A stretch of DNA of 64,000 bases from a virus: positions 32,001 through 96,000 of IMG/VR virus record IMGVR_UViG_3300009514_000888. One strand, 5' to 3'. The position numbers and the translations under genes are program-made. Below the pieces are notes generated by a model. That model was given only the letters and a program-made list of their open reading frames with translations. It made no database searches and had not been told where the DNA came from. How positions within the stretch are numbered: the stretch's first letter is position 1; each line of letters begins with the position of its first letter. Shown one piece after another: positions 20,770 through 53,583 of the stretch.

Positions 20770-23700
20770 ATGGCGAAGAGGAAGTCCAGTAGAGCCGGAG
20801 AATTCCTGTCTTCTCTTAGAGAGAGCCTGAAAGGGGATGGAGAGTCTAATATACCAGATATTATCTCCTTCGTAGAGGATGAGAGATACCTGGGATTGCC
20901 GCATGGACATAATCCTATTAATCTGTTTCCTGCCCAAAAATTGACGCTCAAGGCGTTTTATAGAGGCTCTGTCGGAAACGAAAATCTAGAAATTACCGAT
21001 GAAGATTATGCGTTGTGTCGCAAGATGGGGCTGACGGATCATGATGATCGTGGTAATCTGCTCGAAAAGATTCAAAGCAATAGCATCTTTAGAGAGCTGG
21101 TGCTGGTTTGGGGGCGTCGGTGCGTCTCAGAAGATATGGAAATAATCGATCCGGATACAGGCACCGTTTGGACATTTGGAGAATTGTGGGATCATGGCAG
21201 GAGACGTATAGACTCCTGGACTTATGATGAAAATAGCAGAAAAATGAGGATCATCAAAGACGCAGATATCCTGTTTCAGGGTAAAAGAGAAGTTTTCGAA
21301 TTAGAAACTAAAAGCGGGCATAAAATAGAAGCTACCTTAAATCACCCGTTCTTGACTAAACATGGATGGAAAAAACTAGAAGATTTAGAAATCAACAAAG
21401 ATGCTGTCGCATTGTGCACTGAACAGCCATTCTTCGGCAAGTCAGATGCTATCAGCGAAGATGAAGCTGCACTGCAAAGCATTGGATTTGCAGGAGATAA
21501 GCAGAGAGAGTTTCCGGACAGACCATATGCCCCTACCAAGCGGAGAGCAATTAATCAGTCATGCCTAAAGTTTTCCAAGATTAATTCTATCAAGCCCATT
21601 GGGCGTAAACGAACATTTGACCTTTCTGTTAGCGATAAAAAATCGTTGCAAAACTTTACTACACAAGGGTTTGTAATCTCGAACTCAGGTAAGGATTTTA
21701 GTGGTAGTATTATTGCTGCCTATGAGGCCATGAAGTTATTGGAGGTTCCCGGCGGCGATCCGTATGCTTATTATAACATCGGTTCTGCTGTTCCCATCTC
21801 AATTCTTACCGTTGCTACGTCTAAGCCCCAGGCCAGGATTGCGTTCCAGGAGATTAGGGAAAAAGTTATTTACAGCCAATACTTTCAGGACAAATACCTG
21901 CCAGAGGGCATTGAAACTGAGGCTATTCACCTTTTGACCCCCAAGGACAAGAAAGATAACCAGGAATTTGCCGCCAAGGGATTACCCTTAAAGAAAGGAT
22001 CAGTTTGTATTGAAGTTGGTCACTCTAACTCCGACTCCTTGCTTGGTAAAGGCTGCATTGTTTTGATTCTTGATGAGGTTGCTTCTTATAAGAACACTGG
22101 CGGGTCATCATCCGGAGACCGTATCTATACTGCTTTGCAACCAACCTTGAATACCTATTATCGCCGCATCCCTATTGAGGACGAATTTGGCAACATCAAA
22201 ATGGATGAGGATGGCAAGGCATGCTATAATATTGAGTATCATGGTAAGATCATCTCGATTTCATCTCCCAGAGGCAAGGAAGGTAAGTTCTATGATTTGT
22301 GGCAGGGAGCGGCTGGCGCTCCTGAAAGACTTGCCTGCCGTCTCCCGACTTGGGAAGTAAATAACCAGCATAGCTATGACTCCTTGCGAGCCGCTAATAG
22401 CGAAATGAGCGAGGAAGTCTTTATGATGGAATTTGGTGCCGAGTTTTCAGGCACAGCAGGTGAGGCGTTCTTCGAAAGAGACCAGGTTGAGCGATGCTTT
22501 AGGGGGCATGTGTTCATTGAGAATCGTTTAATTGGAGAGCCAGGAAAGGTTTATTTTGCCCATCTCGACCCTGCCACGAATAGCCACAATTATGCTTTGG
22601 TGGTTTTGCATAAAGAGATGTTTATCAATCGCGTAGACAAGAAATCGGATTTCTATGTGGTGGTGGATCACATCAAAACATGGCATCCTGGGCAGGACAA
22701 GCCTATCGATATTGATGCAGTTGATGAATACATGATTCAATTGAAGCGCCGATTTCATTTGGGAGTTGTAACGTATGACCATTGGAACTGTACTAGTCCT
22801 GAATCCTGGATTTTTTCCTCTAAAGGGCTGGTCCAGGTCAAGGATTTGAAATTAGGAGATCATGTGCAGGGGCAGGGCGGACAACTTAATAAAGTGATGT
22901 CATTAGGATATAAAAGGGATGTTAAGGGATATAGAGTCCGAACAAAATTTGGTTATGAATTACAGGCTAATGATGTTCATCCTGTTTTGGATAAAGAAAA
23001 TGGCTTTGTTCAATTGAAAGACCTGTCAGTTGGATCGACTGTTTGTCTTAAGGATTTCGAAGGCATTTTTGGAGAAGAAGACGCCGTAAATGAAGCGGCT
23101 ATGTCTGGGTATTTGATTTCAGAAGGTCATTTTGCTAGTAAAAGAAATAGCGTAGAATTCACGACTACATCAGATGACAATTTACATGATTATTGTAAAC
23201 TTGCAATATCAGTGGTTGGGGATGAGCCAAGAATTTATGTCAAAAAGTTCAAAAATCATTGGAAAGATTCGTACAATGCTAGATACATGCAGTCTGATCA
23301 TGTAGAAAAGATTATGGGATTATGTGATTGCGGATTATCTCACGATAAGAAAATCCCACAGTTTGTAATGAAAGGCAACAAACGAACTGTTGCTGCATTT
23401 TTGTCCGCTTTGTACGAAGGGGACGGGACTGTAATAAAAGATATCAACTGTCTTTCTGTACAATATGACACTGTTAGCGAGGAATTGTCTAAGCAAGTCC
23501 AGATGCTTTTGTTAGCATTTGGAATTAAATCTAGTAGGAAATATTTCGAAAACAAGTATTTCAAAGATAAGAAATGTCCATATTATAGAGTTAGTTTGTA
23601 TGGATACAATATATTTGCTTTTCATAACAATATTGGTTTTAGGTCAAAAGAAAAGAGAGATAGGTTGGATAATGTTGTTGATTTGCAAGGTTCTGACAAA

Positions 23701-31345: not shown

Positions 31346-32158
31346 ATGCAGTTCATAACGAACAAGATCAGTACTGGAAAGGCGAAGACCTTTGAGGAAT
31401 TAGTCTCTGCGTACGTAGAGAAGAAGAACCAGGCGAAGACGGCTGATGCGTCTCAGGCAATCAAGACTGCTCAGGTCGAAGTTGTAGAAGCTTCCGGCCG
31501 CGGCGATGCTTCTGCTGGGGAGAAAGACGAAGCCGAATCTTCGGGTCAGCTGGATGTCGAACCTCTCCACCAGGAAGGCGAATCGACTCCAAGTCCCCAC
31601 AAGGATAAGACCGAATGTTCTGCTGACTCCGAAGTCAAGCAAGCAGATGTTAAGATGAGTGATCCTTGTGAAGACGAATGCGATTCCTCTGGCCATCCCG
31701 AATGGGAAGGCAAGGATGAGCATAACAACGATCCTGAGGCTGGACGACACCGCGAAGGCGATGGCGACCAGAAGGAAGCCGCTGGCGAAGCCGAGGTTAA
31801 GAAGGCTAATCTTGACAATCTTGGTGACAAGAAGGCTAAGCCGTTTGGCAAGGAAGAAAAGGAAGAGGAAGAAGAAGAAGTTAAGGCTTCTGCTGATTCC
31901 GAAACCAAGGAAGCTGCTTCCAAAAAGACGGCTGGCTGTGACTGCGGACCCGATTGCGACTGCCCAGGCAAGGCCGGCGGTGACTGCGAATGTAAGTCTT
32001 GCCATGCCGATACGAAGAAAGATGTCAAGGAAGCCGTTGCTGCTCCCAAGTTCGTCAAAGTATCTGATTTGAATGACAAGAGCAAGAGCTGGCTTAGGGA
32101 CTATTGGAGAAATATCTTCCCAGACGCTTATGTTGACGCGATGCTTGCTGACAAGTAA
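31346..32158 (+). CDS. Acidic scaffold/core-like protein with Cys cluster
   Basis: Highly charged; contains CDCGPDCDCPG...CECKSCH and an aromatic C-terminal helix. Confidence 0.6.
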   Translation: MQFITNKISTGKAKTFEELVSAYVEKKNQAKTADASQAIKTAQVEVVEASGRGDASAGEKDEAESSGQLDVEPLHQEGESTPSPHKDKTECSADSEVKQADVKMSDPCEDECDSSGHPEWEGKDEHNNDPEAGRHREGDGDQKEAAGEAEVKKANLDNLGDKKAKPFGKEEKEEEEEEVKASADSETKEAASKKTAGCDCGPDCDCPGKAGGDCECKSCHADTKKDVKEAVAAPKFVKVSDLNDKSKSWLRDYWRNIFPDAYVDAMLADK

Positions 32159-41390: not shown

Positions 41391-44300
41391 ATGAGTTTAA
41401 CAAAGACGGCTACGTCTAACAATTGTTCTATCCATCCCCTCAATAACCCAGGTTGGGATATATACAAGTTGCCAGAGATGGTCAAGATGGCTTCGCTTGA
41501 AAAATCGAAGGGCGAAGACCTCGGTGGTTTCGATCTCGGCGCAGCTGTAAAAGATCACCCAGATAACCTTTTCGTCAAGATTTTCGCCATCAAAGAAGAT
41601 GAAGTCAACGACAATGGCGACTACTTTTCAGCAGAAGAATTAGAGAAATCAGCTGGTACATTTGTTGGCGTTCCAGTATTCACCAATCACCAAAATGACG
41701 ACATCGAACGCGCCAGGGGCGAATGCGTCCACGCATGGTATGACAAGGATGCGCAGGGCATTTTCATTATTGCCAGAGTTGATAAGATCGCTTATCCGAA
41801 ATTAGCCCGAGGCATAGAAGAACAAATCATTAAATCAACCTCAATGGGCGCGTCACGCGGCCATGATCTCGTTACCATGTCCGACTATTCGTATAAGCGG
41901 GTAGACGAATTAAAAATAGGAGATCAGGTTATTACTCATACGGGAAGGACAGAGAGTGTCCATGCCCTTTGCAGAACCCAAGAACATGACGAATTATATC
42001 ACATTAAATGGAATGGCAAGAAATCTGGTCTTGCCCTAAGCCATGAACATCCCGTTCTGATACTTAGGCATGATGATCTTCATTTGGCGCAGCCAACTGG
42101 GGAAAGATGCAGAAAGACTCCGCTAGAGATCAATGAAAACATAAAGCCTGCATTCGTTGAAGCAAGCCAGGTTAGAGAAGGGGATTATGTTCTCGAGATT
42201 ATTGATGGGCCTAGGTCTGATATAGACACCGAGATAGGTAGAGTCGCCTTGAATACAGGGGCTCCAGTCACGCTTTCTGGGCATGATGTCGTTGCCTTGA
42301 CATCTACCGTCATGGACCCTGACGCCGAGTATACGGGACATCATTTTGCTATTTCTGATCCATTGTCAGCATTTTCATACAAAGTAAAGCTAAATAAGCG
42401 ATCCAAAAGACTTAAATTTGACTCATTCTTTTATGACAAATATATTGCTCACAGGGTAGAATCTGTAGATAAGATTAGGAATACAGAACCTACTTATTAT
42501 GTGCAGATAGGGGAGATAGATGATACCGAAAGTGATCATAGCTATATTCTAAACGATATTGCTACTCACAACTGCTCGGTGGAGGGCAGTGTGTGCTCTA
42601 TTTGCCATAATTACTCTACGACAGCTGATTCGTATTGCACGCATATTAGAAATCAAAAAACAAGAAAAACATCAACGACCTGCAAATGCAAATATCACGA
42701 AAGCGCAGATTTAGATGGCAGTAAAAAAGATGAGCCTTGCCCTGTTTGCGGCGCTACCAAGAGTGACTCGAAGCAACTCAAGCACTCTGATCAGGAAGTC
42801 TTTGAATACAACTACGGGCTGAAGTTCATCGAGAACTCGTTCGTGGTCAATCCTGCGTGCCATACCTGCGGCGTTGCATGTATTCTCAATGAACCAGAGA
42901 TAAACAAGAAAGTTGCTTTCCTTCAGGAGCGCATTCAGAAACTTTCTCATGATTTCAATAAGGGAATTAAACTCGGGAAAAATGCTGGGCGAGAAGAATT
43001 AGATGCCCTTCAGGAAGCAATGAACAATATCGAAAAAGTATCCAAGTCTATGTTGGCCCAAAAAGACCAAGTAGACCTGGAATTCGTCAGCGATCTCGTC
43101 AAACTCATGTCTGACTTACAGGATACAACTGACGAACTTATGGAGATGGGATATGCGCAACTCCCGTCTCCTCCAGACTTTGTGACTGGGTCGGGGGTAG
43201 AGGGCGATGTTACATTTCCTGATCCAACTGCGGGTATCCCGCAGCCTGCGCAGCAGATGGGGCCGCCACCGGCGACTCAAACGACTCAGACTCCGTCTGC
43301 GACCCAGACTGACATTATAGGCGGCCTAGGTTCGGTAACTAAGCCTGCAATGTCAACGTTAGTCAATCAAAAGAAGGAGTTTATAAGAACTTCTTCGAAT
43401 CTGGGTAAAAAGATTTCTGCGCTAGCAAGGCGCATAAACAATCTGGCAAGGAGCAGCACTGTGTCCGATGCCCATACGCATGTTTGGGATGATGGGAGTG
43501 ACCCATCTTCCCGCAATGTATTAATAGACGAAACCTATATCACAGAGTCCCAGGGGGATACGGTGCTGCGGGTTTCTGCCATTTCTGAATTACCCACTGA
43601 TCTTCAAAAGATGATTAGGTCGAATCCCCAAGAAGCGGGGAGACGTGTCCTTGCGAGCTATAAGGAGTCTGGATATACCATGAAAGATAACTCAACTGAG
43701 AAGACCGCTGCTGTCGGGCCGTTCGGCAAGGATAGCGCGTCCCAGCAAGAGGTCATTACTGAAAAGCAGTTGCGCAACGAACCTCCTGACCTGCACCCTC
43801 GCTGGGGCGATACCTATGAGCAGATTACTGAGTCCAATGAGCAACTTGGACGCAGCGATGATAAGATGCATGATACCACTTCTGATTCCCCGCAAAAAAG
43901 ACTGGGAACTTATGAAACAATCACTGAGGACCAGCTAAAGGTCGTTACTGATGGTCATATTGTGCGCGCCAATGACTGGCCCGAAGTTGTGACTGAAAAG
44001 CAATGGACTGATATGGCTCGCCTCGTCAGCGCTGAACTACCAGACGACTGGACAGAGCGTATCACCGAAGCACAAATCCGCGATCTTCTGGATCATCACA
44101 GGTTCGTCGGACCTTATGAAACTATTACCGAAGATCAGCTTAAGAATCAGGACTGGGGCATCAAGCGATGGGCCAGCGCGACTTATACACAACAGCTGGC
44201 GAAGGTTGCTGTGAATGCCATCTCTGATGCGATTGCTCGCTTTAATAAGACTCCAGAAGAGATCGACAGGGTAGCGTCATATGTGAATGATAACCCCGTT

Positions 44301-47300
44301 AATACATCAAAGATTGCGTTCCTGACGCTCATCAATGCCCTTCCTTTTAAGAAGAAAGCACGCGAGAAACTCGCCAGGAATGTTGCTTATTTCCAGAAAA
44401 GAGCGTCTAAGAGCGCAGAAATGCCGAATGCCCTCGATGCTCTGATCATTTCTATCGCCAATCATGCCCATCATGGCTTGAGGGCGGAGGATGTCTATGA
44501 AGCTATCGCTCGCTCCCTAAATAACAAGAAGGCGATGGCCAAGGTAGATAGCCTTGTGCAAACTAAATTGGCTTCCGTTCCTGGAATGGAAGATGAGATT
44601 CTTGATAAGTTTTCGGCTATTGATCGCGCCTTCGATATGGTTGATCGCCCCGAAGACGGTAAATGGCAGGTCAAGGCAACGGTTAAGGAGGTCTTGGCTT
44701 CCGCTAATAAGGAAGCTCGCACCAATAAGGCTAAGTTCATCCAGGCTGCCCATGAGTTCGCTTTGGACCAGATCGGACCTGAACTGGATAAGAAAGCTGG
44801 CGTTCTGCTAGAAATCGAAGTCCAGGATGGCACTGTGTCTGTTACTGAAGGCGATAGCGGAATGGGACTTGAGGGTCCAGATGAACTGCTAGAAGATTTC
44901 GACATGGAGCTACTGGGAGATGAGGGCGACCTCGGCGATGGCCTGGGCGGCGACCTCGGCGACGATGAAAAAGACATGGGCGGCATGGCTGGCACCGGCG
45001 GTATGGCCGGAACAGGCGGCGGCGCAGGTATGAGCTATATGGCGTCTCAGAATGCGCGATCTAAAATCACCAAGCAGGCTCAGCTCATGGGCGGGGAAAT
45101 GGGCGGCCAGGGCGGCGCAGCGCAGGCTCCTGGCGCGGGGGCAACTTTGCCCCAGCCCCCAATGGGAGAAGCGCCTCCAATGGAAAGCTTTACTGGTCAG
45201 GATGACGAGTTGGGCGGCGAATCGCATGACCTGTCTCCGAAGCCACCTGGCTCGATTTGCCCTGTTTGTGGCAGCGAAGATGTTGATGTTGCTGAAGGCG
45301 GAAGTCGTTGCGCCAACTGCGGGAGCGACTTCAGCGTCAAGGTTAATCTCGAAGTTAACGATTGGGCGAACCTCACCAGCACCGAAGATAATCTTGAAAG
45401 CGGCGAATTGGGCGGCGAGGATGAAGGGATGGGATTCGAGATGCCAGAAGGCGGCGGGGCAGGCGCTCCTGAAATGCCTATCGCGGCGATGACTCGCATA
45501 TCTCCCGAAGCTCTTCAAAAGGTTGCCAAGATGGCTGAGGCCATCAAGGGTACGAGCGAAGAGAGCTGGGGTAAGTTCTCAAAGCTTGTATCGGATGGAG
45601 GATACGGGTTAAGCCAGAAGATGGCAGAAAGCTATGCGACTAAGCAGGAAGTTAAGCTTGGATCGATTAGTCCATTGACCGGCAATGATAATACCGTCCA
45701 CATGGGCGGAAATGAATACGTTTGTCTTGCGACTGGCACGAAGTATACGGTTGACTTTGCAACCAATACCAAGAAGCCAGAGCATGTTTATGCCCAATGG
45801 GCTTATACGCCTAGGTATGCAAGCGCAATCTGCCCGTCTTGCAATAGGGCAAGAAAGCGTTTCGCTTCACAGCTTAAAGCATTCGGCGTCAAAGAAGACC
45901 AGTTCGATGCTATGAATCCTTATGAAAAGGCCAAGACCATCGTTGCTATGAAGAAGGCTGGCGTTCTCAAGGAAATCAAGACTGCTGATAAGATCGGAAC
46001 AGTGCTCCAGGATTACAAGAAGGCTTACGGCGTCTTTGGGAATGGCGACAAGTTCCCGATGGAATCTTGCCGACATAAGCTGGCTCGTAAGTGGGGAGAA
46101 AACTCCCTGGCTATTAGCGGACCTTGCGAAGGACAGCCTATCCATGAGTGCGTTTGTAATCAGCTAAAGAATGCAGGAATCTATTCAGATCAGGTTGCCA
46201 TCAAGCTCGCATCTGTTTGGAGCGGAGCTGATGGATTCGAAGATTGCGTTACCGACCAGGTCCGATCCAGACTCTCCCTGAGAGAGGCGGCGGTTGTTTG
46301 CTCGGCCCTGAAAACCGCGCTCGCCAATGATGAAGAATTCCTCGGCGACAGCCTTGGAGATGATATGGGCGGCGACCTCGGCGGCGATGATATGTCCGCC
46401 GTTGGCGATGAGCTCGGCGGCGATGAACTCGGCGACGACTTCGATCCGTTTGATGGCGGAATGGAAGGCGGCGACCTGGGCGGCGGGATGGTGACTTTGG
46501 AACTGTCCGAAGATGTTGCGAAGGAACTCGATGCCAACCTGGATGCCGCTCTTGGTAGCGATCCAACTGATGACCTCGGCGAAGGAGAAAGCCTGGGCGA
46601 GGCCGCTCCTGGGCTGGAAGGCGGCGAAGGGCTTGACGCTGGCGGAGACCTTGGCGTGGGCGGCAGCAATATTGATGAGCTAGATATGCTTGACGAGAAT
46701 GCCTGCAAGCCGTGTCATGATGCGAAGCCCATGATGGGCGGCAATAACATGGTGCCTACTGCTGGTAAGAAGGACAAGAATGAAGGAAAGAACGTCGATG
46801 AGTTTGTAAACAATGAACTTAAGGAGCCTGGCGATCTCAAGGGAGTTGAAACCAAGAAATCGTCTGACTCGGTCCAGCACAAGGAGGCCTCTCATATGAG
46901 AAGTAGCTTTAGCAGAACAGGACAGGTAGAAATGGACCTGCTCTCAGTAGCACGAAAACTCGGCCTCTCTAAAGAATCTGGCGAAAAAGAAATTCAACAA
47001 GAACTCGTTCAAGACTCCGGCGATATCGGTTCTTACTCTGCTGGCGACCCGCTCGGCAGCGATCTCCCGTCCGCAATGGGGCATGAAACCGAATCCGTCT
47101 CCACCGCAGAGCATCCCAGCGTTCCTCGCGGCGAAGCCCTGATGGGACACGAGTCTGATAATATTGATAAGTCCGAACCCCTGCCGCATATCCCGTCTGA
47201 TAAAGGCACGATGGGGCATGAGGACGAAGTCGGACTGTCCGGCGGCGATGTCCGCTTCACGGGCGGATATGGGGCTGGCGGAGCTGGCTCTCCTGGCGCT

Positions 47301-48125
47301 GGCCAGGCAGAAACTAATGCCGCCTCCGAAGAGCAACTTCGCAAAGAAGCAGAAGAAAAGGTATTGAATGAAGTTGCCCGCATGAGAGGACTCGGCGGAA
47401 ACACAAAGTCCAGTATCGATTCTCTGGTTGATCGTTTGCTGGCCAATGCCGAAAAACCGCTCAAGCAAGCAGACTTCGGAAAATTAAAGGCCCCTAAGCC
47501 TGTTGCAGATGATAAGGATATCCAGCCAGTCGATGGCGGCGGCAAGGGTATCGCGCATGAACCGAATTTCTCGGCGGATACGCCGACGAATACCGAGGGA
47601 GGCAAGACCACATCCCTGATGGGACATGAGCGAGAATCGCTCGGTGGCGCTCCCAAATCCCCCGCCGATCATCCTACGGTCCCTGCTGATAATCAGCTGA
47701 TGGGTCATGAGGAAGGCGGCGAGGTTGGACCTGAAAAAGGTAGAGAAAACAAGGGTACCGTCATCGCAGGAGACGATGGTGCGTCCGAGGCTCGTACGAA
47801 ACTCGCAACAACCGTTGCGGCTGAAATGATGCAGTCCGGCCTGATCAAGGTCAATGAACTGCATAGTAAAATTGTTGAACTCAGCAAGTATGAGCCTGCC
47901 CAGATTCAAGACATTCGTAAGGCAATGTTTTCAGGGCGTAAAGGACTCGACACGGTATCGGACGGGCTCGAGCGGCCTGTAATCATCAATGAAGCTAGTA
48001 ATCAGAGAGATGGTAATCATGAACTCTCTGAAAAGCTCCAATCGATGTTTACCCTTTCAAAGCGAACAGAAGAGGCTTTGAAAGACCCAGATTTCGCTCT
48101 CAAATATGCTCATAGAGTGTTTTGA
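41391..48125 (+). CDS. Giant prohead protease/scaffold polyprotein (2244 aa) with intein
   Basis: N-terminal protease-like domain (NDNGDYF, PVFTNHQND...GEC, STSMG|CSV, FIENSFVVNPA). Followed by Zn ribbons, ITExQL repeats, acidic Gly-rich tracts and MGHE repeats. Lies just upstream of the capsid genes. Confidence 0.75.
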   Translation: MSLTKTATSNNCSIHPLNNPGWDIYKLPEMVKMASLEKSKGEDLGGFDLGAAVKDHPDNLFVKIFAIKEDEVNDNGDYFSAEELEKSAGTFVGVPVFTNHQNDDIERARGECVHAWYDKDAQGIFIIARVDKIAYPKLARGIEEQIIKSTSMGASRGHDLVTMSDYSYKRVDELKIGDQVITHTGRTESVHALCRTQEHDELYHIKWNGKKSGLALSHEHPVLILRHDDLHLAQPTGERCRKTPLEINENIKPAFVEASQVREGDYVLEIIDGPRSDIDTEIGRVALNTGAPVTLSGHDVVALTSTVMDPDAEYTGHHFAISDPLSAFSYKVKLNKRSKRLKFDSFFYDKYIAHRVESVDKIRNTEPTYYVQIGEIDDTESDHSYILNDIATHNCSVEGSVCSICHNYSTTADSYCTHIRNQKTRKTSTTCKCKYHESADLDGSKKDEPCPVCGATKSDSKQLKHSDQEVFEYNYGLKFIENSFVVNPACHTCGVACILNEPEINKKVAFLQERIQKLSHDFNKGIKLGKNAGREELDALQEAMNNIEKVSKSMLAQKDQVDLEFVSDLVKLMSDLQDTTDELMEMGYAQLPSPPDFVTGSGVEGDVTFPDPTAGIPQPAQQMGPPPATQTTQTPSATQTDIIGGLGSVTKPAMSTLVNQKKEFIRTSSNLGKKISALARRINNLARSSTVSDAHTHVWDDGSDPSSRNVLIDETYITESQGDTVLRVSAISELPTDLQKMIRSNPQEAGRRVLASYKESGYTMKDNSTEKTAAVGPFGKDSASQQEVITEKQLRNEPPDLHPRWGDTYEQITESNEQLGRSDDKMHDTTSDSPQKRLGTYETITEDQLKVVTDGHIVRANDWPEVVTEKQWTDMARLVSAELPDDWTERITEAQIRDLLDHHRFVGPYETITEDQLKNQDWGIKRWASATYTQQLAKVAVNAISDAIARFNKTPEEIDRVASYVNDNPVNTSKIAFLTLINALPFKKKAREKLARNVAYFQKRASKSAEMPNALDALIISIANHAHHGLRAEDVYEAIARSLNNKKAMAKVDSLVQTKLASVPGMEDEILDKFSAIDRAFDMVDRPEDGKWQVKATVKEVLASANKEARTNKAKFIQAAHEFALDQIGPELDKKAGVLLEIEVQDGTVSVTEGDSGMGLEGPDELLEDFDMELLGDEGDLGDGLGGDLGDDEKDMGGMAGTGGMAGTGGGAGMSYMASQNARSKITKQAQLMGGEMGGQGGAAQAPGAGATLPQPPMGEAPPMESFTGQDDELGGESHDLSPKPPGSICPVCGSEDVDVAEGGSRCANCGSDFSVKVNLEVNDWANLTSTEDNLESGELGGEDEGMGFEMPEGGGAGAPEMPIAAMTRISPEALQKVAKMAEAIKGTSEESWGKFSKLVSDGGYGLSQKMAESYATKQEVKLGSISPLTGNDNTVHMGGNEYVCLATGTKYTVDFATNTKKPEHVYAQWAYTPRYASAICPSCNRARKRFASQLKAFGVKEDQFDAMNPYEKAKTIVAMKKAGVLKEIKTADKIGTVLQDYKKAYGVFGNGDKFPMESCRHKLARKWGENSLAISGPCEGQPIHECVCNQLKNAGIYSDQVAIKLASVWSGADGFEDCVTDQVRSRLSLREAAVVCSALKTALANDEEFLGDSLGDDMGGDLGGDDMSAVGDELGGDELGDDFDPFDGGMEGGDLGGGMVTLELSEDVAKELDANLDAALGSDPTDDLGEGESLGEAAPGLEGGEGLDAGGDLGVGGSNIDELDMLDENACKPCHDAKPMMGGNNMVPTAGKKDKNEGKNVDEFVNNELKEPGDLKGVETKKSSDSVQHKEASHMRSSFSRTGQVEMDLLSVARKLGLSKESGEKEIQQELVQDSGDIGSYSAGDPLGSDLPSAMGHETESVSTAEHPSVPRGEALMGHESDNIDKSEPLPHIPSDKGTMGHEDEVGLSGGDVRFTGGYGAGGAGSPGAGQAETNAASEEQLRKEAEEKVLNEVARMRGLGGNTKSSIDSLVDRLLANAEKPLKQADFGKLKAPKPVADDKDIQPVDGGGKGIAHEPNFSADTPTNTEGGKTTSLMGHERESLGGAPKSPADHPTVPADNQLMGHEEGGEVGPEKGRENKGTVIAGDDGASEARTKLATTVAAEMMQSGLIKVNELHSKIVELSKYEPAQIQDIRKAMFSGRKGLDTVSDGLERPVIINEASNQRDGNHELSEKLQSMFTLSKRTEEALKDPDFALKYAHRVF
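41850..42572 (+). mobile_element. Intein starting with Ala (241 aa) at the protease SMG|C motif
   Basis: STSMG|ASRGHDLVTMSD...LSHEHPVL...SYILNDIATHN|CSVEG; block A spacing aligns A1/V8/M10/D12. Confidence 0.85.
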
Positions 48126-48147: not shown

Positions 48148-48738
48148 ATGGCTCTCATTGAGATTTACCATGTAGTTGCTGACTTCTTCGATGTTAACCC
48201 CCTCGCCGATTGGACGGCAACTGAAGGGCAATGGGGTTCCCTCGTCGAACAAGGCGGCAAAACCTATGTCGAACCAGCCGGTGCGACTTCAAACGTTATG
48301 GGTTGCTTAGGCGACTCGCGTTTGACCAATACCGCTGGCACGCCATATGCAGCCGATCTGATCATTGGCGCTCACCAGCCCAATCCCACGACTGGCAAGT
48401 CCCGTTCAACCCAGAACCGTGTAAGCGATAGCTTTGACGAAACTCTTGCCTCCGGCAAGATGACCGTCTATCACGGCGGCGGAAAGTTCGCGACTGACCA
48501 GTTCGAAACGTTGACTGGCGGCAACCCAATCGATTACAACCCAGGACAAGCCCTCTATGTTAGCGCTAATGCTAACCTGACTAACGTCGGAACGAGCGGC
48601 ACAAACCCGCGAGTTGGCTTCCTCGTTGAAGGTCCGAAAGACTTCCCAAGCGGAGTCCCAGGTACCGATACGCCGGATGGCTCGCTCTCTCTGGGCAGTT
48701 ATGTCACCTTTGTGATGGACATCCAGAATCCCGACTAA
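48148..48738 (+). CDS. Head decoration/minor capsid-like protein
   Basis: Position directly upstream of the capsid gene; beta-rich with SGKMTVYHGGGKFATDQFE. Confidence 0.6.
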   Translation: MALIEIYHVVADFFDVNPLADWTATEGQWGSLVEQGGKTYVEPAGATSNVMGCLGDSRLTNTAGTPYAADLIIGAHQPNPTTGKSRSTQNRVSDSFDETLASGKMTVYHGGGKFATDQFETLTGGNPIDYNPGQALYVSANANLTNVGTSGTNPRVGFLVEGPKDFPSGVPGTDTPDGSLSLGSYVTFVMDIQNPD

Positions 48739-48835
48739 TTTGTAATAATTAGATTCGGACTAAAAAAAGAATCATCAAATTGCTCCTTGAGGTTTGGAAA
48801 CGAATATTCAAGGGTAATTGATAGGAGAAAGACAA

Positions 48836-48965
48836 ATGAGTCTTGCTAAGAATGGTCTTTCAGACCAAGATAAGGAAATGGTTATTGCCCAAGCGCTGAA
48901 TACCGACGAAGGTCGCACAGCTCTTGCCCAGGCAATGGTAGAGCCTATCCGCCGCTCGCTTGAGT
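48836..48965 (+). CDS. Major capsid protein exon 1
   Basis: RBS AGGAGA. Reads MSLAKNGLSDQDKEMVIAQALNTDEGRTALAQAMVEPIRRSLE plus T. Missing from the ORF track (43 codons). Confidence 0.9.
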
Positions 48966-50060
48966 AGATTGATGCTCCTCGTATTGGCAACAATATGAGC
49001 AAACTCGGCTTATTTGCGTGAAACCTAAATCTGAAAAGATATGGTAATACGCAGGGAAGTCTAAAGGAAACTATGATAAACGCAATCTCAAAACCTAATT
49101 ACCAAGACGTTCGCAGTATGTATTGCGAGCAGGGGTATACGTTTGCAGAAATCGCAAATGAATACGAATGCAGCTCGTCTATGATTAGAAAGATTGCGAA
49201 AAGGCATAACATCCCCATTATGAGGGGAAGAAGTAAAACAAGAAAAGTTATTGTTCAAAAATCCAAAATATCACTAGCTCTAACAAGAAATGATATTGAA
49301 CGATTTGGAAACGCCTTCTCCAGACAAGCATATGAGATGTCTATGGGATCGCTCCTGGGAGATGCGTTTTTGAAGGTAAGGCAAAATAAGTATAATTCAA
49401 GGTATAATATTTATTTTGCCCATTCTGTTGATCAGAGGCATTACCTGGAATACAAGAGAGAATTTTTCTCTGATGAAGAAGCCAATGATATCAGAATCGA
49501 ATACAGGGACAATAATGATACTTATATCAAAGGGAAAAAAGTCAACCAGAAAGACTTGGTAGTTTTTTCAACCAAGTCATACAATTTAAGTAATCTTCAT
49601 AGAATGTTATATAAAAACAATGTTAAACGCATTACGATGGAATACTTGAAATTGCTTACTCCATTATCTTTGGCTACATGGTACATGGATGATGGCAGCT
49701 ATAATAAGCAAAATCGTTTGATTAGAATCGCTACAATGTGTTTCACTAATAAAGAAAATAACATACTCAAGGATTACTTCTATAACAGGTTGAAAATGCC
49801 ATGCTTTCTTGAAAAAGTTAATTGTGGACATGGTCGTTCAATTGTATTAACACAAAACTCTACAAGAAAGTTCTTGGCTCTTATATATCCTTATGCCTGC
49901 AAGATGATGCAATACAAGTTTCCTAATGACCCCTCAGAGACTCTGAAAGCTGTTACGACAGTGAGTAAGGAAGCGCTCGCAAGAGTCGCTTAATAGCGCT
50001 GGGCATCCGTATAACGGATGATGATATAGTCCAACCCTCAATGAAAATTGAGAATAGTTG
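48966..50060 (+). mobile_element. Group I intron 1 in the major capsid gene
   Basis: Exon ends in U and intron ends in G. P1 GAGU/GCUC (48974-48977). P10 UUGAU pairs with exon 2 AUCAA. Core motifs CCCTCAGAGACT and GATATAGTCC. Confidence 0.93.
49073..49993 (+). CDS. Intron-encoded LAGLIDADG homing endonuclease with N-terminal HTH
   Basis: Motifs MGSLLGDA and LATWYMDDG. Confidence 0.9.
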   Translation: MINAISKPNYQDVRSMYCEQGYTFAEIANEYECSSSMIRKIAKRHNIPIMRGRSKTRKVIVQKSKISLALTRNDIERFGNAFSRQAYEMSMGSLLGDAFLKVRQNKYNSRYNIYFAHSVDQRHYLEYKREFFSDEEANDIRIEYRDNNDTYIKGKKVNQKDLVVFSTKSYNLSNLHRMLYKNNVKRITMEYLKLLTPLSLATWYMDDGSYNKQNRLIRIATMCFTNKENNILKDYFYNRLKMPCFLEKVNCGHGRSIVLTQNSTRKFLALIYPYACKMMQYKFPNDPSETLKAVTTVSKEALARVA

Positions 50061-50095
50061 ATCAAGCGGTCGGACGTAAGCTGCTGATGGTGGAT
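50061..50095 (+). CDS. Major capsid protein exon 2 (35 nt)
   Basis: Reads (T)AT CAA GCG GTC GGA CGT AAG CTG CTG ATG GTG GAT = YQAVGRKLLMVD. Confidence 0.9.
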
Positions 50096-50510
50096 TAACC
50101 TAAAAAGCTTGTCCACCTAGAATCGCGAGATTCTATCAAAAAAACCAGACTCATATCGGGGAAACCTAAATCGAAAGATAAGGCAATCCCGAGGGAAGTT
50201 TAAGGAAAGTTCTTGAAGGTTCACAATGAGTAAGAAATACGAAATTAACACTGATAAAGTCATTTCTTCTTATATGGAGAAGAATATGACCATGAAAGAG
50301 ATAGCATCTCAATATGGATGTCATCGTAGTGTTATCGCTCGTATTCTTAGTATGGCTTACAAGAATAAGCTTTCTGATAACCCCGTAGAGACTTGCCCAG
50401 ATATGGGCAGAGTGTCAGTACTGAAATGTTCTGATGCTAATACGTCTGGCTCTTCCTCTTATTGGAAGATGATGGTATAGTCCACGGCTCCCGAAAGGGA
50501 TGACCGATTG
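50096..50510 (+). mobile_element. Group I intron 2 in the major capsid gene
   Basis: IGS GUCCACC (50111-50117) pairs with exon end GGUGGAU. P10 AAGCUU pairs with exon 3 GAGCUU. Core motifs CCCGTAGAGACT and GGTATAGTCC; terminal G. Confidence 0.92.
50226..50480 (+). pseudogene. HTH-only remnant of an intron homing endonuclease
   Basis: HTH MTMKEIASQYGCHRSVIARIL resembles the N-termini of the neighbouring intron ORFs; no nuclease domain. Confidence 0.6.
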
Positions 50511-50688
50511 GAGCTTCCACAAGGCGCTCTTGCTCGTTACGAGCGAGACGTTGCCTCCATCGCTCACGTCGTTTCTCGTCGCGGCGCAGTGCCCGACCAG
50601 ATCGTCGAAGGCGAAGAAATCCTCGTTCCTACTTTCGAAATCGCCGCGAACCCCACGGTTCGTCTTAGCGAAATCAAGGCACGCCGCT
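50511..50688 (+). CDS. Major capsid protein exon 3
   Basis: Reads ELPQGALARYERDV...FEIAANPTVRLSEIKARR plus T. Confidence 0.92.
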
Positions 50689-51722
50689 TAATGACGATTT
50701 AAGTAGAGGTGGCGTTAAATCCGACCAAATGCTGGAAACCCCTTAGAGCCTTGAATACCAAAGCGTAACAATTTCAAGGATTGGGCAATCAGCAGGAAAG
50801 AACCCGAAAGCATTATGAAACTTATAGAACAACAAGACAAGATAGTAAGAATGTATTTGGATGAAAAGAAATCCATTCGCGCTATTGCTAGACTTTTGGA
50901 TTGTTCTATGTCTGGGATCAAAAGTATTTTGCATAAAAATAATGTCAAGATGAGAAATAAGTGTGAATCTCTAAATTTGTGCCCAGATAGTTTCAGCGAG
51001 GAAGAATTTGATATTGTATTCGGAACTACGCTTGGAGATGGACATATCACCAAGAAGAGAGGACCGAAAGGCGAATGCCAACTATATGTTGGTCATGGCT
51101 TGAAGCAAAGCGATTACTTAAACTGGAAGTACCAGAAAATGTTGCGCTTTGTTTCCGGTATGCCATATGAGCTAAAGCATTACTTGAAATCGAATAAGAA
51201 GACCTATATAACATTGAACTTTATTACTAGAAAAAGTTCATTGTTTACAAAGATGAGAGAAGCCTTTTATCCAGAAGGAAAAAAGGTAATCCCCTGCGAT
51301 TTCGAAGATAAGATTAATGCAAAATCATTAGCTATTTGGTATATGGATGATGGATATAGGTATAAGAACAAAAACAATATCGAAATTCATACTCAATGCT
51401 TTACTCATGAAGATCAATTAAGAATATTGAAAATTCTTAAGAAGAAGTTTGGAATAGTATCTCACATAAGAACCCTTCCCACAAGAAAAGAGATTGTATT
51501 TATACCCTCTGCATCTTGCGGTAAGTTTCTACAAGTTGTGAATGATCATATTGTTCCAAGCATGAGATATAAAGGGTTATCCTCAGAGGCTATTACGTCG
51601 GACATGCTCCTAAAAAAGCATGAAGATAGAGTCCGTTCTGCCAGGAAACTGGTAGAGATAACCTAACGGTTATCTGCCCAAAGAATCCAGATATGGATCA
51701 TGGGTGCAAAAATAACATTAAG
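50689..51722 (+). mobile_element. Group I intron 3 in the major capsid gene
   Basis: IGS GGUGGCG (50708-50714) pairs with exon end CGCCGCU. P10 GUAGA pairs with UUUAC. Core motifs AATGCTGGAAA, AATCAGCAG, TCAGAGGCT and GATAGAGTCC; terminal G. Confidence 0.92.
50815..51666 (+). CDS. Intron-encoded LAGLIDADG homing endonuclease with N-terminal HTH
   Basis: Motifs FGTTLGDG and LAIWYMDDG. Confidence 0.9.
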   Translation: MKLIEQQDKIVRMYLDEKKSIRAIARLLDCSMSGIKSILHKNNVKMRNKCESLNLCPDSFSEEEFDIVFGTTLGDGHITKKRGPKGECQLYVGHGLKQSDYLNWKYQKMLRFVSGMPYELKHYLKSNKKTYITLNFITRKSSLFTKMREAFYPEGKKVIPCDFEDKINAKSLAIWYMDDGYRYKNKNNIEIHTQCFTHEDQLRILKILKKKFGIVSHIRTLPTRKEIVFIPSASCGKFLQVVNDHIVPSMRYKGLSSEAITSDMLLKKHEDRVRSARKLVEIT

Positions 51723-52252
51723 TTTACATCGTAGATAGAGCCCAGATTAAGGCCAAAGAAGCTATCCAGAAGGAAGAAGATACGAATATCTTTAATGCGC
51801 TGATCGCTGCCGCCGATACTCGCGGCGACCAGGTTGTGACGAACGTTGGTACCCTTACCATCGCTAGCCTCAATACTGCGTTCCGCTTGATTGAACAGCA
51901 CGACTTAGTGGCTGCGAAGATTGTCCTGCATGCCAACCAGTATGCTTCCGTAAGAACGTTCGGAAAAGATTTCTACGATGAGGCGACAACTCGAGAAATC
52001 ATCACGACAGGACTTTACGGACACCTGTGGACGGCTGACCTGCATGTTTCTTCCAGAATGGATTCAAATACTGTTCTGGTAGTAGCTTCCGCAGAGAATG
52101 TTGGCGCATTCCCAATCAGGCAGGATATTACTGTCCTTCCTGCTGACGATCCAAAGAAATTAAGATTGGGTTGGGTGATCTACGAGGAAGTAGGAATTGT
52201 TGTAGTCAACGACTACGCAATCTCCAAGATTGACGTTTCCGCTGCTACCTAA
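51723..52252 (+). CDS. Major capsid protein exon 4
   Basis: Reads (T)TT TAC ATC GTA = FYIVDRAQIKAKEAIQKEED...GWVIYEEVGIVVVNDYAISKIDVSAAT*. The four exons total 873 nt, giving 290 aa. Confidence 0.92.
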
Positions 52253-52278: not shown

Positions 52279-52307
52279 AAAGCCCCCAAATTAGGGGGCT
52301 TTTTTTT
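52279..52307 (+). terminator. Rho-independent terminator after the capsid gene
   Basis: AAAGCCCCC-AAATTA-GGGGGCTTT followed by a T run. Confidence 0.9.
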
Positions 52308-52356
52308 AACTCTTTCGTATATAACTTTTTTCCAAATATCTCTTTATATATAACTT

Positions 52357-53583
52357 TTGCTAAAGAGTAGTTGTGATTTAGTCGATGGTAGTGTTATGTC
52401 TAAGGCAGGTAAGATTAAGGTTCTTTTTCCCCATCTTTATCAGGAGCTAGATCGTTTTTCTAATAAGGGTATAGATTTGGATGGATTAACATCTGGCTCC
52501 AATGCATACGTTTGGTGGAGATGTGTCTATGGTCACTCTTGGAAAGCCCAGGTCTATAATCGTGTTAAGGGGACAGGATGCCCTTACTGCTCTGGAAATG
52601 CCATATCAGACAATAGTCTACAAAAGAAGCAACCTGACTTGGCTTCTCAATTCTGTAAGATCAAGAACGATCTGTCTCCAGACGAGATTTCTTTCTGTAG
52701 TAATAAGAAGGTTTGGTGGAAGTGTTCTAAGGCGGATGATCACGTTTGGAAGGCAACGCCCAATGATCGAAACAAAGCATCTGGGTGTCCTTTTTGTTCT
52801 GGTCGCCGAGCATCGAAAGATAATAATTTGCTAGATAAATACCCTGAAATTGCTAATCAATGGCATCCTACAAAAAATGGCGCATTAACACCCTCAGATT
52901 TGACGCCAGCTAGCGGGAAGAAAGTGTGGTGGAAGTGTAAGGTAGCTAGCGACCATGAGTGGCTTGCCTCTCCTAACACAAGAATCAATATGACAAACAG
53001 TTTAAGCTGTCCATTTTGCACAGGTCGCAAGGTGTGTAATTCGAATTGCCTGTCTACCACTCACGAGTTTTTACTAGATAGTTGGGATTTTAAGAAGAAT
53101 GAGATATCTCCTACAGAAATAACTTATTCTTCTCATAAAAAGATTTGGTGGATATGCGACAAGAAGCATAGTTGGTGTGCAAATGTATATAGTAGATCAG
53201 CAGGGAAGGGGTGCCAGCAATGCAATTTATCCAAAGGCGAGGCAAAGGTTGCTAAAGTTTTGTCTGACATGGGGATGTACTTCCAAAAAGAGTATAGATT
53301 TAAGAAATCCAAGATTCCCAGGAGAAAGTTTGATTTTGCGGTGTTTAATCAATCTATCCATTTGATAGAGTATCATGGGATTCAGCATTATGAGCCTGTT
53401 TCTTTTGGCTCTAAGACAGTTAAGGGGCAACAAACTCTAAAAAGAATTCAGCATAGGGATCAACTGAAGAGGGAATGGGTATTGGATAATGGTTATCCTC
53501 TTTTAGAGATACCCTATTGGGATTTTGATCAAATAGAACACTTAATAAGAGATTTTCTTTATGAGCGAAAGAAAGATTCATAA
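52357..53583 (+). CDS. Zn-ribbon-repeat (DUF4379-like) protein with C-terminal PD-(D/E)xK/Vsr-like nuclease; putative homing endonuclease
   Basis: Four VWW.C...H.W.A....R....CP.C repeats, then SKGE...FDFA...IEYHG.QHY. AT-rich. Confidence 0.8.
   Translation: MLKSSCDLVDGSVMSKAGKIKVLFPHLYQELDRFSNKGIDLDGLTSGSNAYVWWRCVYGHSWKAQVYNRVKGTGCPYCSGNAISDNSLQKKQPDLASQFCKIKNDLSPDEISFCSNKKVWWKCSKADDHVWKATPNDRNKASGCPFCSGRRASKDNNLLDKYPEIANQWHPTKNGALTPSDLTPASGKKVWWKCKVASDHEWLASPNTRINMTNSLSCPFCTGRKVCNSNCLSTTHEFLLDSWDFKKNEISPTEITYSSHKKIWWICDKKHSWCANVYSRSAGKGCQQCNLSKGEAKVAKVLSDMGMYFQKEYRFKKSKIPRRKFDFAVFNQSIHLIEYHGIQHYEPVSFGSKTVKGQQTLKRIQHRDQLKREWVLDNGYPLLEIPYWDFDQIEHLIRDFLYERKKDS

Follow-up and report, generated by a model that had tools for sequence, protein, structure and literature searches.

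A major capsid gene of a phage G-like virus split into four exons by three predicted mobile group I introns

Group I introns have been described in the major capsid genes of mycobacteriophage LittleE and lactococcal phage Tuc2009, and in LittleE the splicing was demonstrated by reverse transcription PCR and N-terminal sequencing (PMC3706429). The orf142 gene of Staphylococcus phage Twort, later identified as the tail tube gene, is cited as containing three group I introns and as showing exon skipping (Landthaler & Shub 1999, as cited in PMC11878797). Among the Bastillevirinae there are also genes with two or three introns, and an exon skipping of 47% was found in one polymerase gene (PMC11878797), while the Jug huge phages carry about 18.5 group I introns per genome, with terL in 2-3 pieces (PMC12880540). 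Here, we have analyzed a window of 64,000 nucleotides (positions 32,001 to 96,000 of the IMG/VR virus record IMGVR_UViG_3300009514_000888), which contains at positions 48836-52252 (window numbering is used throughout) what is, with high probability, the single major capsid gene in the sequenced part of a phage G-like jumbo phage, invaded at three sites by mobile group I introns that range from unrelated to distantly related. The whole record comprises 186 kb, is 39% complete according to the CheckV estimate, and appears to be the partial genome of an uncultured giant phage related to Bacillus phage G (498 kb). A first-pass annotation of the window considered three introns in a capsid gene to be unusual, a claim that was overstated, since both capsid-gene introns (PMC3706429) and three-intron structural genes (PMC11878797) have been published.

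The capsid gene is encoded on the plus strand. Its four exons (48836-48965, 50061-50095, 50511-50688, and 51723-52252) are those proposed in the first-pass annotation, and their join of 873 nt translates into 290 amino acids (aa) followed by a stop codon. Exon 1 (48836-48965; 130 nt) encodes residues 1-43 and the first base of the Tyr44 codon, matches positions 38-72 of the PHROG 2522 family ("major head protein"), and aligns both with gp27 of phage G and with metagenomic homologues of 290 aa. It starts at the same ATG where the capsid homologues begin with MSLAKNG. Exon 2 (50061-50095) is a micro-exon of only 35 nt that encodes (Y)QAVGRKLLMVD, a peptide that is located opposite YQGVGRKLLVVD of gp27 and is identical in close homologues. 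Exon 3 (50511-50688; 178 nt) encodes residues 56-114 and the first base of the Phe115 codon, matches PHROG 2522 positions 87-145, and can also be aligned with gp27 and the homologues. Exon 4 (51723-52252; 530 nt) encodes residues 115-290 and the stop codon, and it matches positions 149-315 of the same family (E 2.3e-34). The matches of exons 1, 3, and 4 were obtained with each exon singly and they are collinear, leaving about 14 profile positions between exons 1 and 3 as room for the 35-nt exon.

The joined protein shares 54% identity over 279 aa with gp27 (E 6e-112), and exon 4 shares 49% identity with it in a tblastn comparison. The alignment with gp27 contains one single-residue gap, distant from the junctions, and it is gapless across all three of them; the phage G gp27 gene (NC_023719 23289-24137) is uninterrupted. 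Exon 4 has more than 1000 homologues in a large protein database, the best of them being proteins of 290 aa that are 91-95% identical over this exon. In these metagenomic proteins the junction peptides RRSLE-YQAVGRKLLMVD-ELPQG and IKARR-FYIVDRAQ are identical to those of the join, and the best of them contain exactly RRSLEYQAVGRKLLMVDELPQG and IKARRFYIVDRAQ. Moreover, the homologue P0004 (95% identical over exon 4) matches the structure of the gp27 major capsid protein (PDB 6WKK) with an E-value of 1.3e-94. Pfam yielded no capsid family at E ≤ 0.01 for the exons or for the full-length homologues, and a precomputed PF25209 label on a capsid homologue was graded as weak. The product can thus be regarded as a full-length homologue of the phage G gp27 family (PHROG 2522), i.e., a putative HK97-fold major capsid protein, in agreement with the identity that the gene was first given. 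We have not identified a second capsid gene in the 186-kb record.

The homology with gp27 and with the 290-aa proteins fixes the junctions to the nucleotide, and they are GAGT/ATCAA, GGAT/GAGCTT, and CGCT/TTTAC, exactly as they had been predicted. Among the placements allowed by homology, only these junctions produce introns ending in G. The first-pass annotation had pointed to intron-free capsid homologues as a check of the joins, and both gp27 and the 290-aa homologues are indeed continuous across all of them. It had also anticipated that automated annotation would miss or fragment this gene; gene callers deliver pieces of 49, 64, and 138 aa.

The three inserts are intron 1 (48966-50060; 1095 nt), intron 2 (50096-50510; 415 nt), and intron 3 (50689-51722; 1034 nt), all of them on the plus strand. 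As already noticed in the first reading of the sequence, a U precedes each 5' splice site, each insert ends in G (50060, 50510, and 51722, respectively), and P1 and P10 pairings can be formed at every junction. The U forms a U.G wobble with the guide in P1. The guide of intron 1 consists of a P10 part UUGAU (48969-48973) and a P1 part GCUC (48974-48977), that of intron 2 of AAGCUU (50105-50110) and GUCCACC (50111-50117), and that of intron 3 of GUAGA (50703-50707) and GGUGGCGU (50708-50715), the P10 part being located directly 5' of the P1 part in the three cases. The resulting P1 pairings are GAGU/GCUC (4 bp), GGUGGAU/GUCCACC (7 bp), and ACGCCGCU/GGUGGCGU (8 bp), and the P10 pairings are AUCAA/UUGAU (5 bp), GAGCUU/AAGCUU (6 bp), and UUUAC/GUAGA (5 bp). 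When the 5' region of each intron was kept and combined with random exon contexts in 20,000 trials, the sum of P1 and P10 was matched by chance 321 times for intron 1 (9 bp; ~0.016), 4 times for intron 2 (13 bp; ~2e-4), and 7 times for intron 3 (13 bp; ~3.5e-4).

By inspection, the three introns follow a common plan comprising P1, P10, P2, P3, P4-P5, P6 with an open reading frame (ORF) in its loop, P7, P8, and P9. Their P7 has the form G[A]GNCU/AGUCC, with a bulged A, and is located at 49937-49942 (G[A]GACU) and 50028-50032 (AGUCC) in intron 1, at 50388-50393 and 50479-50483 in intron 2, and at 51586-51591 (G[A]GGCU) and 51630-51634 in intron 3. Minimum free energy folding of ORF-free pieces returned local helices of this plan, which in intron 1 were P2, P4-P5, P7.2, P8, and P9. 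Introns 1 and 2 contain P7.1/P7.2 hairpins between P7 and P3', which are a mark of subgroup IA, whereas intron 3 does not have these hairpins and contains P9.1/P9.2 hairpins. According to inspection and folding only, the core of intron 1 presents the same layout as the intron 2 family.

Matches to the group I models had been suggested as a check, and RF00028 does match all three inserts when the thresholds are relaxed, but every one of these scores lies below its gathering cut-off of 50 bits: insert 1 yields partial matches of 38.5, 27.3, and 22.2 bits, insert 2 a full-length alignment of 27.2 bits, and insert 3 matches of 34.3 and 12.8 bits. At the curated threshold the window yields two tRNAs only. 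We attribute the low scores to the ORF inserts of 0.25-0.9 kb in P6. In the whole 186-kb record the RF00028 signals are confined to the three inserts of the capsid gene.

Further evidence comes from homologous introns, found by using the joined protein as tblastn query against 80 IMG/VR relatives. At the site of intron 2 (codon 55/56) there are introns at the identical position in the contigs L029, L040, L069, and L108, the last of these having been detected by means of a core motif. The alignment of these four introns with that of the window, all of them trimmed of their ORFs, revealed compensatory changes in 28 of the 63 modelled pairs (P2 6/6, P3 4/6, P4 2/6, P7.1 6/6, P8 4/6, and P9 3/4), and nearly all cells stay paired. 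In addition, P10 of this family covaries with synonymous changes in exon 3 (AAACUU with GAGUUA, CAAUUU with GAAUUG). A further insert at codon 55/56 is present in L087, represented by its 3' half only and with a 3' junction whose position is not fixed. At the site of intron 3 (codon 114/115), an intron without an ORF is present in the Logan contigs L087/L088 and reaches 86.8 bits with RF00028, well above the cut-off. Compared with intron 3, its P1 differs by two compensatory substitutions, which accompany synonymous changes of the exon (CGCCGCU/GGUGGCG vs CGUCGGU/GCUGACG), and P3, P6, P8, and P9 are compensated as well.

The homologue of intron 3 in L087 (positions 1040-1430) and L088 seems to be devoid of a terminal G. 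The sole junction that restores ...ARRF/YIIDRAQ with a 6-bp P10 (UCUAUA/UAUAGG) ends the intron in ...AAAUA, and an alternative 3' splice site after AAUG would replace the Phe residue by LTINI.

The prediction that the three inserts are group I introns is, in our opinion, well supported. In the case of intron 1, we base it on the exact restoration of the reading frame, the P10 pairing, the terminal G, the partial Rfam matches, and the core resembling that of intron 2. Searches in the viral and metagenome contigs retrieved no relative of the intron 1 endonuclease protein; the junction pattern GARTAGATTGATGCTC gave 16 chance matches in these collections, none of them in a capsid gene, and neither a longer junction pattern nor a core pattern had any match there.

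Several points weigh against the interpretation of the locus as a single capsid gene invaded by three introns. No intron of the window attains the RF00028 cut-off (best scores 38.5, 27.2, and 34.3), the P1 of intron 1 measures only 4 bp and this intron is devoid of a homologue for a covariation test, and a second intact capsid gene could be encoded elsewhere in the genome, given that the record is only 39% complete. Furthermore, the splicing of the three introns is something that we infer from their anatomy and from the established knowledge on group I introns. These points give some room to the possibility that at least one of the inserts, most likely intron 1, no longer splices efficiently, in which case the gene would be crippled and the genome defective or declining, or a helper protein would be needed. 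The short P1, the chance level of ~0.016 for the P1 and P10 pairings, and the missing homologue of intron 1 would fit this explanation, and so would the sub-threshold scores of all three introns. Nevertheless, we consider it improbable, because over exon 4 the gene shares 91-95% identity with intact homologues and its exons contain neither frameshifts nor stop codons, all the core helices of intron 1 can form, and the split gene is the sole capsid gene within the record. Group I ribozymes with a guide pairing of 3-4 bp, like that of Azoarcus, are functional.

The distribution of the introns among the 80 relatives bears on their origin. About 70 of these relatives have an uninterrupted capsid gene, and the inserts of the remaining minority, together with those of the window, occupy five codon positions: 33/34 (L012, L013, L050, L052, and probably L020), 43/44 (the window only), 55/56 (the window, L029, L040, L069, L108, and L087), 114/115 (the window and L087/L088), and 121/122 (L052 and L108). 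The inserts at 33/34 and 121/122 measure 1.0-1.26 kb, and those at 33/34 encode a different LAGLIDADG-type ORF (LAGFFDAEGS) and contain the R/S-like motifs CAACGACT...GAGATAGTCT. While the gene of the window has three introns, every relative examined has at most two. The genes with introns are scattered over a quick tree of the exon 4 region, implying at least eight changes, three of them forced by well-supported branches, and the nearest relatives of the window, L007 (92% identical), L008, and L015, are intron-less. This scattered presence and absence is the pattern that would be expected of mobile introns that have been gained and lost repeatedly. Four of the five insertion sites fall in the top fifth of the 24-nt conservation windows and site 1 is average, which suggests a weak trend of the insertion sites toward conserved DNA. 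The 206-aa homologue P0105 was considered as a further intron site and rejected, since it is shortened by a contig end, and P0108 was not counted as an intron site.

The window derives from a metagenome-based virus record, and therefore the inserts might be conceived as assembly artefacts or chimeric joins. Apart from the scattered distribution, which argues against an artefact, homologous introns interrupt the same codons in independent samples and contigs (L029, L040, L069, L108, and L087/L088), the guide sequences of these introns covary with the respective exons, and the insert boundaries restore the frame exactly, so that this explanation is extremely improbable. Equally remote is the possibility that the interruptions are inteins, removed at the protein level, or group II introns, because stop codons appear in frame at the 5' junctions of intron 1 (UAG; GAG/UAG) and intron 2 (UAA; GAU/UAA) and five codons into intron 3, and because the domain and Rfam scans detected no Hint domain, reverse transcriptase, or domain V signal, the Rfam matches being of group I only.

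Introns 1 and 3 were first described as carrying ORFs with a helix-turn-helix (HTH) and a LAGLIDADG domain, and the domain searches corroborate this assignment, although the HTH signals are weak. The ORF of intron 1 (49073-49993, plus strand) encodes a putative homing endonuclease of 306 aa with an N-terminal HTH-like region, which matches PF03161 (LAGLIDADG_2; E 6.8e-30, 104.7 bits), PHROG 11023 (E 6e-20), and, weakly, Sigma70_r4, and contains the motifs LLGDA and WYMDDG. The ORF of intron 3 (50815-51666, plus strand) encodes a protein of 283 aa with the same organization, matching PF03161 (E 6e-35, 121.1 bits), PHROG 11023 (E 2.7e-23), and, weakly, HTH_38, with the motifs TLGDG and WYMDDG. 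Both proteins keep the two acidic LAGLIDADG motifs and exceed the cut-off of PF03161. Their endonuclease activity and the homing of their introns are deduced from this anatomy and from what is established for group I introns. The two enzymes share only 24% identity, and each of them is 24-30% identical to the enzymes encoded at site 2, so that the three introns represent separate lineages. Both ORFs are located in the loop of P6, and their 3' ends overlap P6'-P7-P7.1-P7.2 in intron 1 and the region from P6' through P9 in intron 3; a conserved peptide (NPVET/DPSET/SSEA) is encoded by J6/7-P7. Since the ORFs thus enter the ribozyme core, the translation of the endonuclease and the folding of the ribozyme would compete on the same RNA.

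The ORF of intron 2 (50226-50480, plus strand; 84 aa) had been described as carrying only the HTH. It shows weak HTH matches and no PF03161 domain, in agreement with that description, and the comparison with the homologous introns provides the cause. In L029 and L040, the full introns at this site code for enzymes that are 305 and 290 aa long, respectively. About 41 N-terminal residues of the 84-aa ORF are 63% identical to the N-terminus of the L108 ORF, about 34 C-terminal residues are 65% identical to residues 254-287 of the 290-aa L040 endonuclease, and the middle part, including both LAGLIDADG motifs, is missing. Therein, we recognize a remnant, an internal-deletion derivative of a decaying LAGLIDADG endonuclease gene, of which L069 and L108 represent further decay stages.

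In L108, a 187-kb relative, the endonuclease ORF at site 2 is truncated at 113 aa and the capsid gene (reverse complement 3401-3563) contains a one-base frame break at codons 20/21, which may be due either to sequencing errors or to decay. Outside the window, the same record encodes a third LAGLIDADG_2 domain (G000:C1:146493-147041; 98 bits) inside an open frame of 704 aa, which may be an intein-borne or fused endonuclease.

The elements established directly, i.e., the gene structure, the junctions, the ribozyme architecture, the covariation, the endonuclease domains, and the presence or absence of the introns in the relatives, allow us to propose how the capsid gene would be expressed. A single precursor transcript of ~3.4 kb would cover the region between the ribosome-binding site (48823) and the terminator near 52300. 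The introns would each fold as a group I ribozyme, in which the guide and the last 4-8 nt of the upstream exon form P1, with the U.G wobble at the splice site, and an external guanosine would cleave there. P10 would then be formed by the guide and the 5-6 nt at the start of the downstream exon, the terminal G would dock in P7, and the exons would be ligated. Three such splicing events would yield the mRNA for the 290-aa HK97-type capsid protein, and the stop codons found at the 5' splice sites or shortly behind them would cause an early end of translation on unspliced RNA. The enzymes of introns 1 and 3 presumably cleave capsid alleles without introns in co-infecting relatives, and the subsequent repair would spread the introns. 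Intron 2 would now be a passenger, the catalytic core of its endonuclease having been deleted. It may be co-converted when intron 1, located 35 bp away, homes, as modelled on the trans-homing of the defunct I-TevIII (PMC2790892). In L069, an endonuclease-less intron persists alone at site 2.

A more speculative idea, which we regard as rather unlikely, is that the three introns constitute a linked weapon-and-hitch-hiker unit. The two intact LAGLIDADG enzymes would attack capsid alleles lacking introns in co-infecting relatives, block the capsid production of these rivals, and convert the alleles, which would amount to interference competition as demonstrated for an intron endonuclease of phage PhiPA3 (PMC11620839). 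Intron 2, devoid of an endonuclease, would persist through co-conversion with the nearby intron 1. A rarer variant of the same idea would be an in-frame join of exon 1 to exon 4, producing a shortened capsid isoform. The possibility of exon skipping through alternative pairing, raised in the first-pass annotation, found no support: upon inspection of P10, neither exon 3 nor exon 4 starts with bases that can pair with the guide UUGAU of intron 1. The frame would be lost if exon 2 only or exon 3 only were skipped, and it is kept solely by the join of exon 1 to exon 4.

The surroundings of the capsid gene contain additional features, of which the ribosome-binding site, the terminator-like hairpin, the 2244-aa ORF, and the endonuclease-like gene are on the plus strand. 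A ribosome-binding site, AGGAG (48823-48827), can be read 8 nt upstream of the capsid ATG, and a hairpin resembling an intrinsic terminator, GCCCCC...GGGGGC followed by a U run (52279-52309), is located downstream of the gene and is matched by the terminator parts of Rfam leader models. The upstream ORF 48148-48738 was considered as the decoration protein gp26, whose position in phage G is equivalent, but no significant similarity was found (E 0.64), and we left it unnamed. Further upstream, the ORF 41391-48125 encodes a protein of 2244 aa whose N-terminus resembles a prohead protease and which apparently contains an intein-like insert ending in ...THN/C. Directly after the capsid terminator, positions 52357-53583 encode a free-standing endonuclease-like protein of 408 aa with four DUF4379 treble-clef zinc-finger repeats (E 2.8e-70), matching PHROG 559 "HNH endonuclease" (E 1e-45). 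This gene is probably a further mobile element beside the capsid gene.

Sequences related to introns 2 and 3 were also observed outside capsid genes. A region of intron 3 corresponding to P3-P5 (50727-50800) shares 90.5% identity over 74 nt with an intron of Acinetobacter phage YMC13/03/R2096, and phages Herod and P577 share the same 74-nt stretch. In YMC13/03/R2096 (NC_027332, ~20975-21582; L002:2435-3042), there are two unannotated group I introns in tandem (RF00028, 78.8 and 96.6 bits) between an HNH endonuclease gene and the annotated coding sequence of the terminase large subunit, the first of them being the one similar to intron 3; terL of this phage is probably a split gene. The core motif of the intron 2 family, AACCCCGTAGAGACT, is also present in short group I introns of L093, L097, L098, L100, L105, and L111, located in apparent phage tRNA genes, with a T-arm-like GGTTCGA after the intron.

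Among the closest counterparts of this locus are the capsid genes of LittleE and Tuc2009. Like the gene described here, they are interrupted by a group I intron that carries a homing endonuclease gene, the 5' exon ends in U and the intron in G, and intron-less relatives define the junction. These phages have one intron each, with the splicing shown, whereas the present gene has three predicted introns and a 35-nt exon. The number of introns recalls the orf142 gene of Twort, which likewise codes for a highly expressed structural protein of the virion in a large myovirus and contains three phage-type group I ribozymes, as far as it is described in the citing work (PMC11878797). That gene is a tail tube gene with demonstrated exon skipping, while here a capsid gene is affected, the pairings do not suggest skipping, and two of the three introns carry LAGLIDADG genes.

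The introns of the T4 td, nrdB, and nrdD (sunY) genes and other phage introns of subgroup IA share with introns 1 and 2 the P7.1/P7.2 hairpins between P7 and P3', and in them the ORF is also looped out of a peripheral helix. The T4 introns interrupt genes of nucleotide metabolism and encode GIY-YIG or HNH enzymes, in contrast to the structural gene, the LAGLIDADG enzymes, and the ORF 3' ends overlapping the catalytic core found here. As an endonuclease-less derivative, intron 2 is comparable to the defunct I-TevIII (PMC2790892). The Jug phages and the Bastillevirinae are similar in that several group I introns and homing endonuclease genes interrupt essential genes of large phages, but those reports stress terL, nrdD, and the DNA polymerase, while in our 186-kb record only the capsid gene shows RF00028 signals. 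Finally, the gp27 protein of Bacillus phage G (PDB 6WKK) is homologous to the predicted product, and its gene is uninterrupted where the present one is split.

What distinguishes this locus is the presence of three capsid-gene introns in a phage G-like jumbo phage, the 35-nt exon, a capsid family with five insertion sites, and one decayed endonuclease gene side by side with two intact ones. In practice, gene callers would report such a phage as having no capsid gene or a broken one, and about one eighth of its metagenomic relatives face the same annotation risk. The locus also provides a clean case, backed by covariation, for late structural genes as regular homes of mobile group I introns, beyond the genes of DNA metabolism. 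The proposed mechanism is the textbook one, comparable cases have been published, and no new question is opened; in the light of these known systems, the capsid gene described here is a well-supported new example, as predicted from its sequence, of a type of mobile element that has been described before in phage structural genes.

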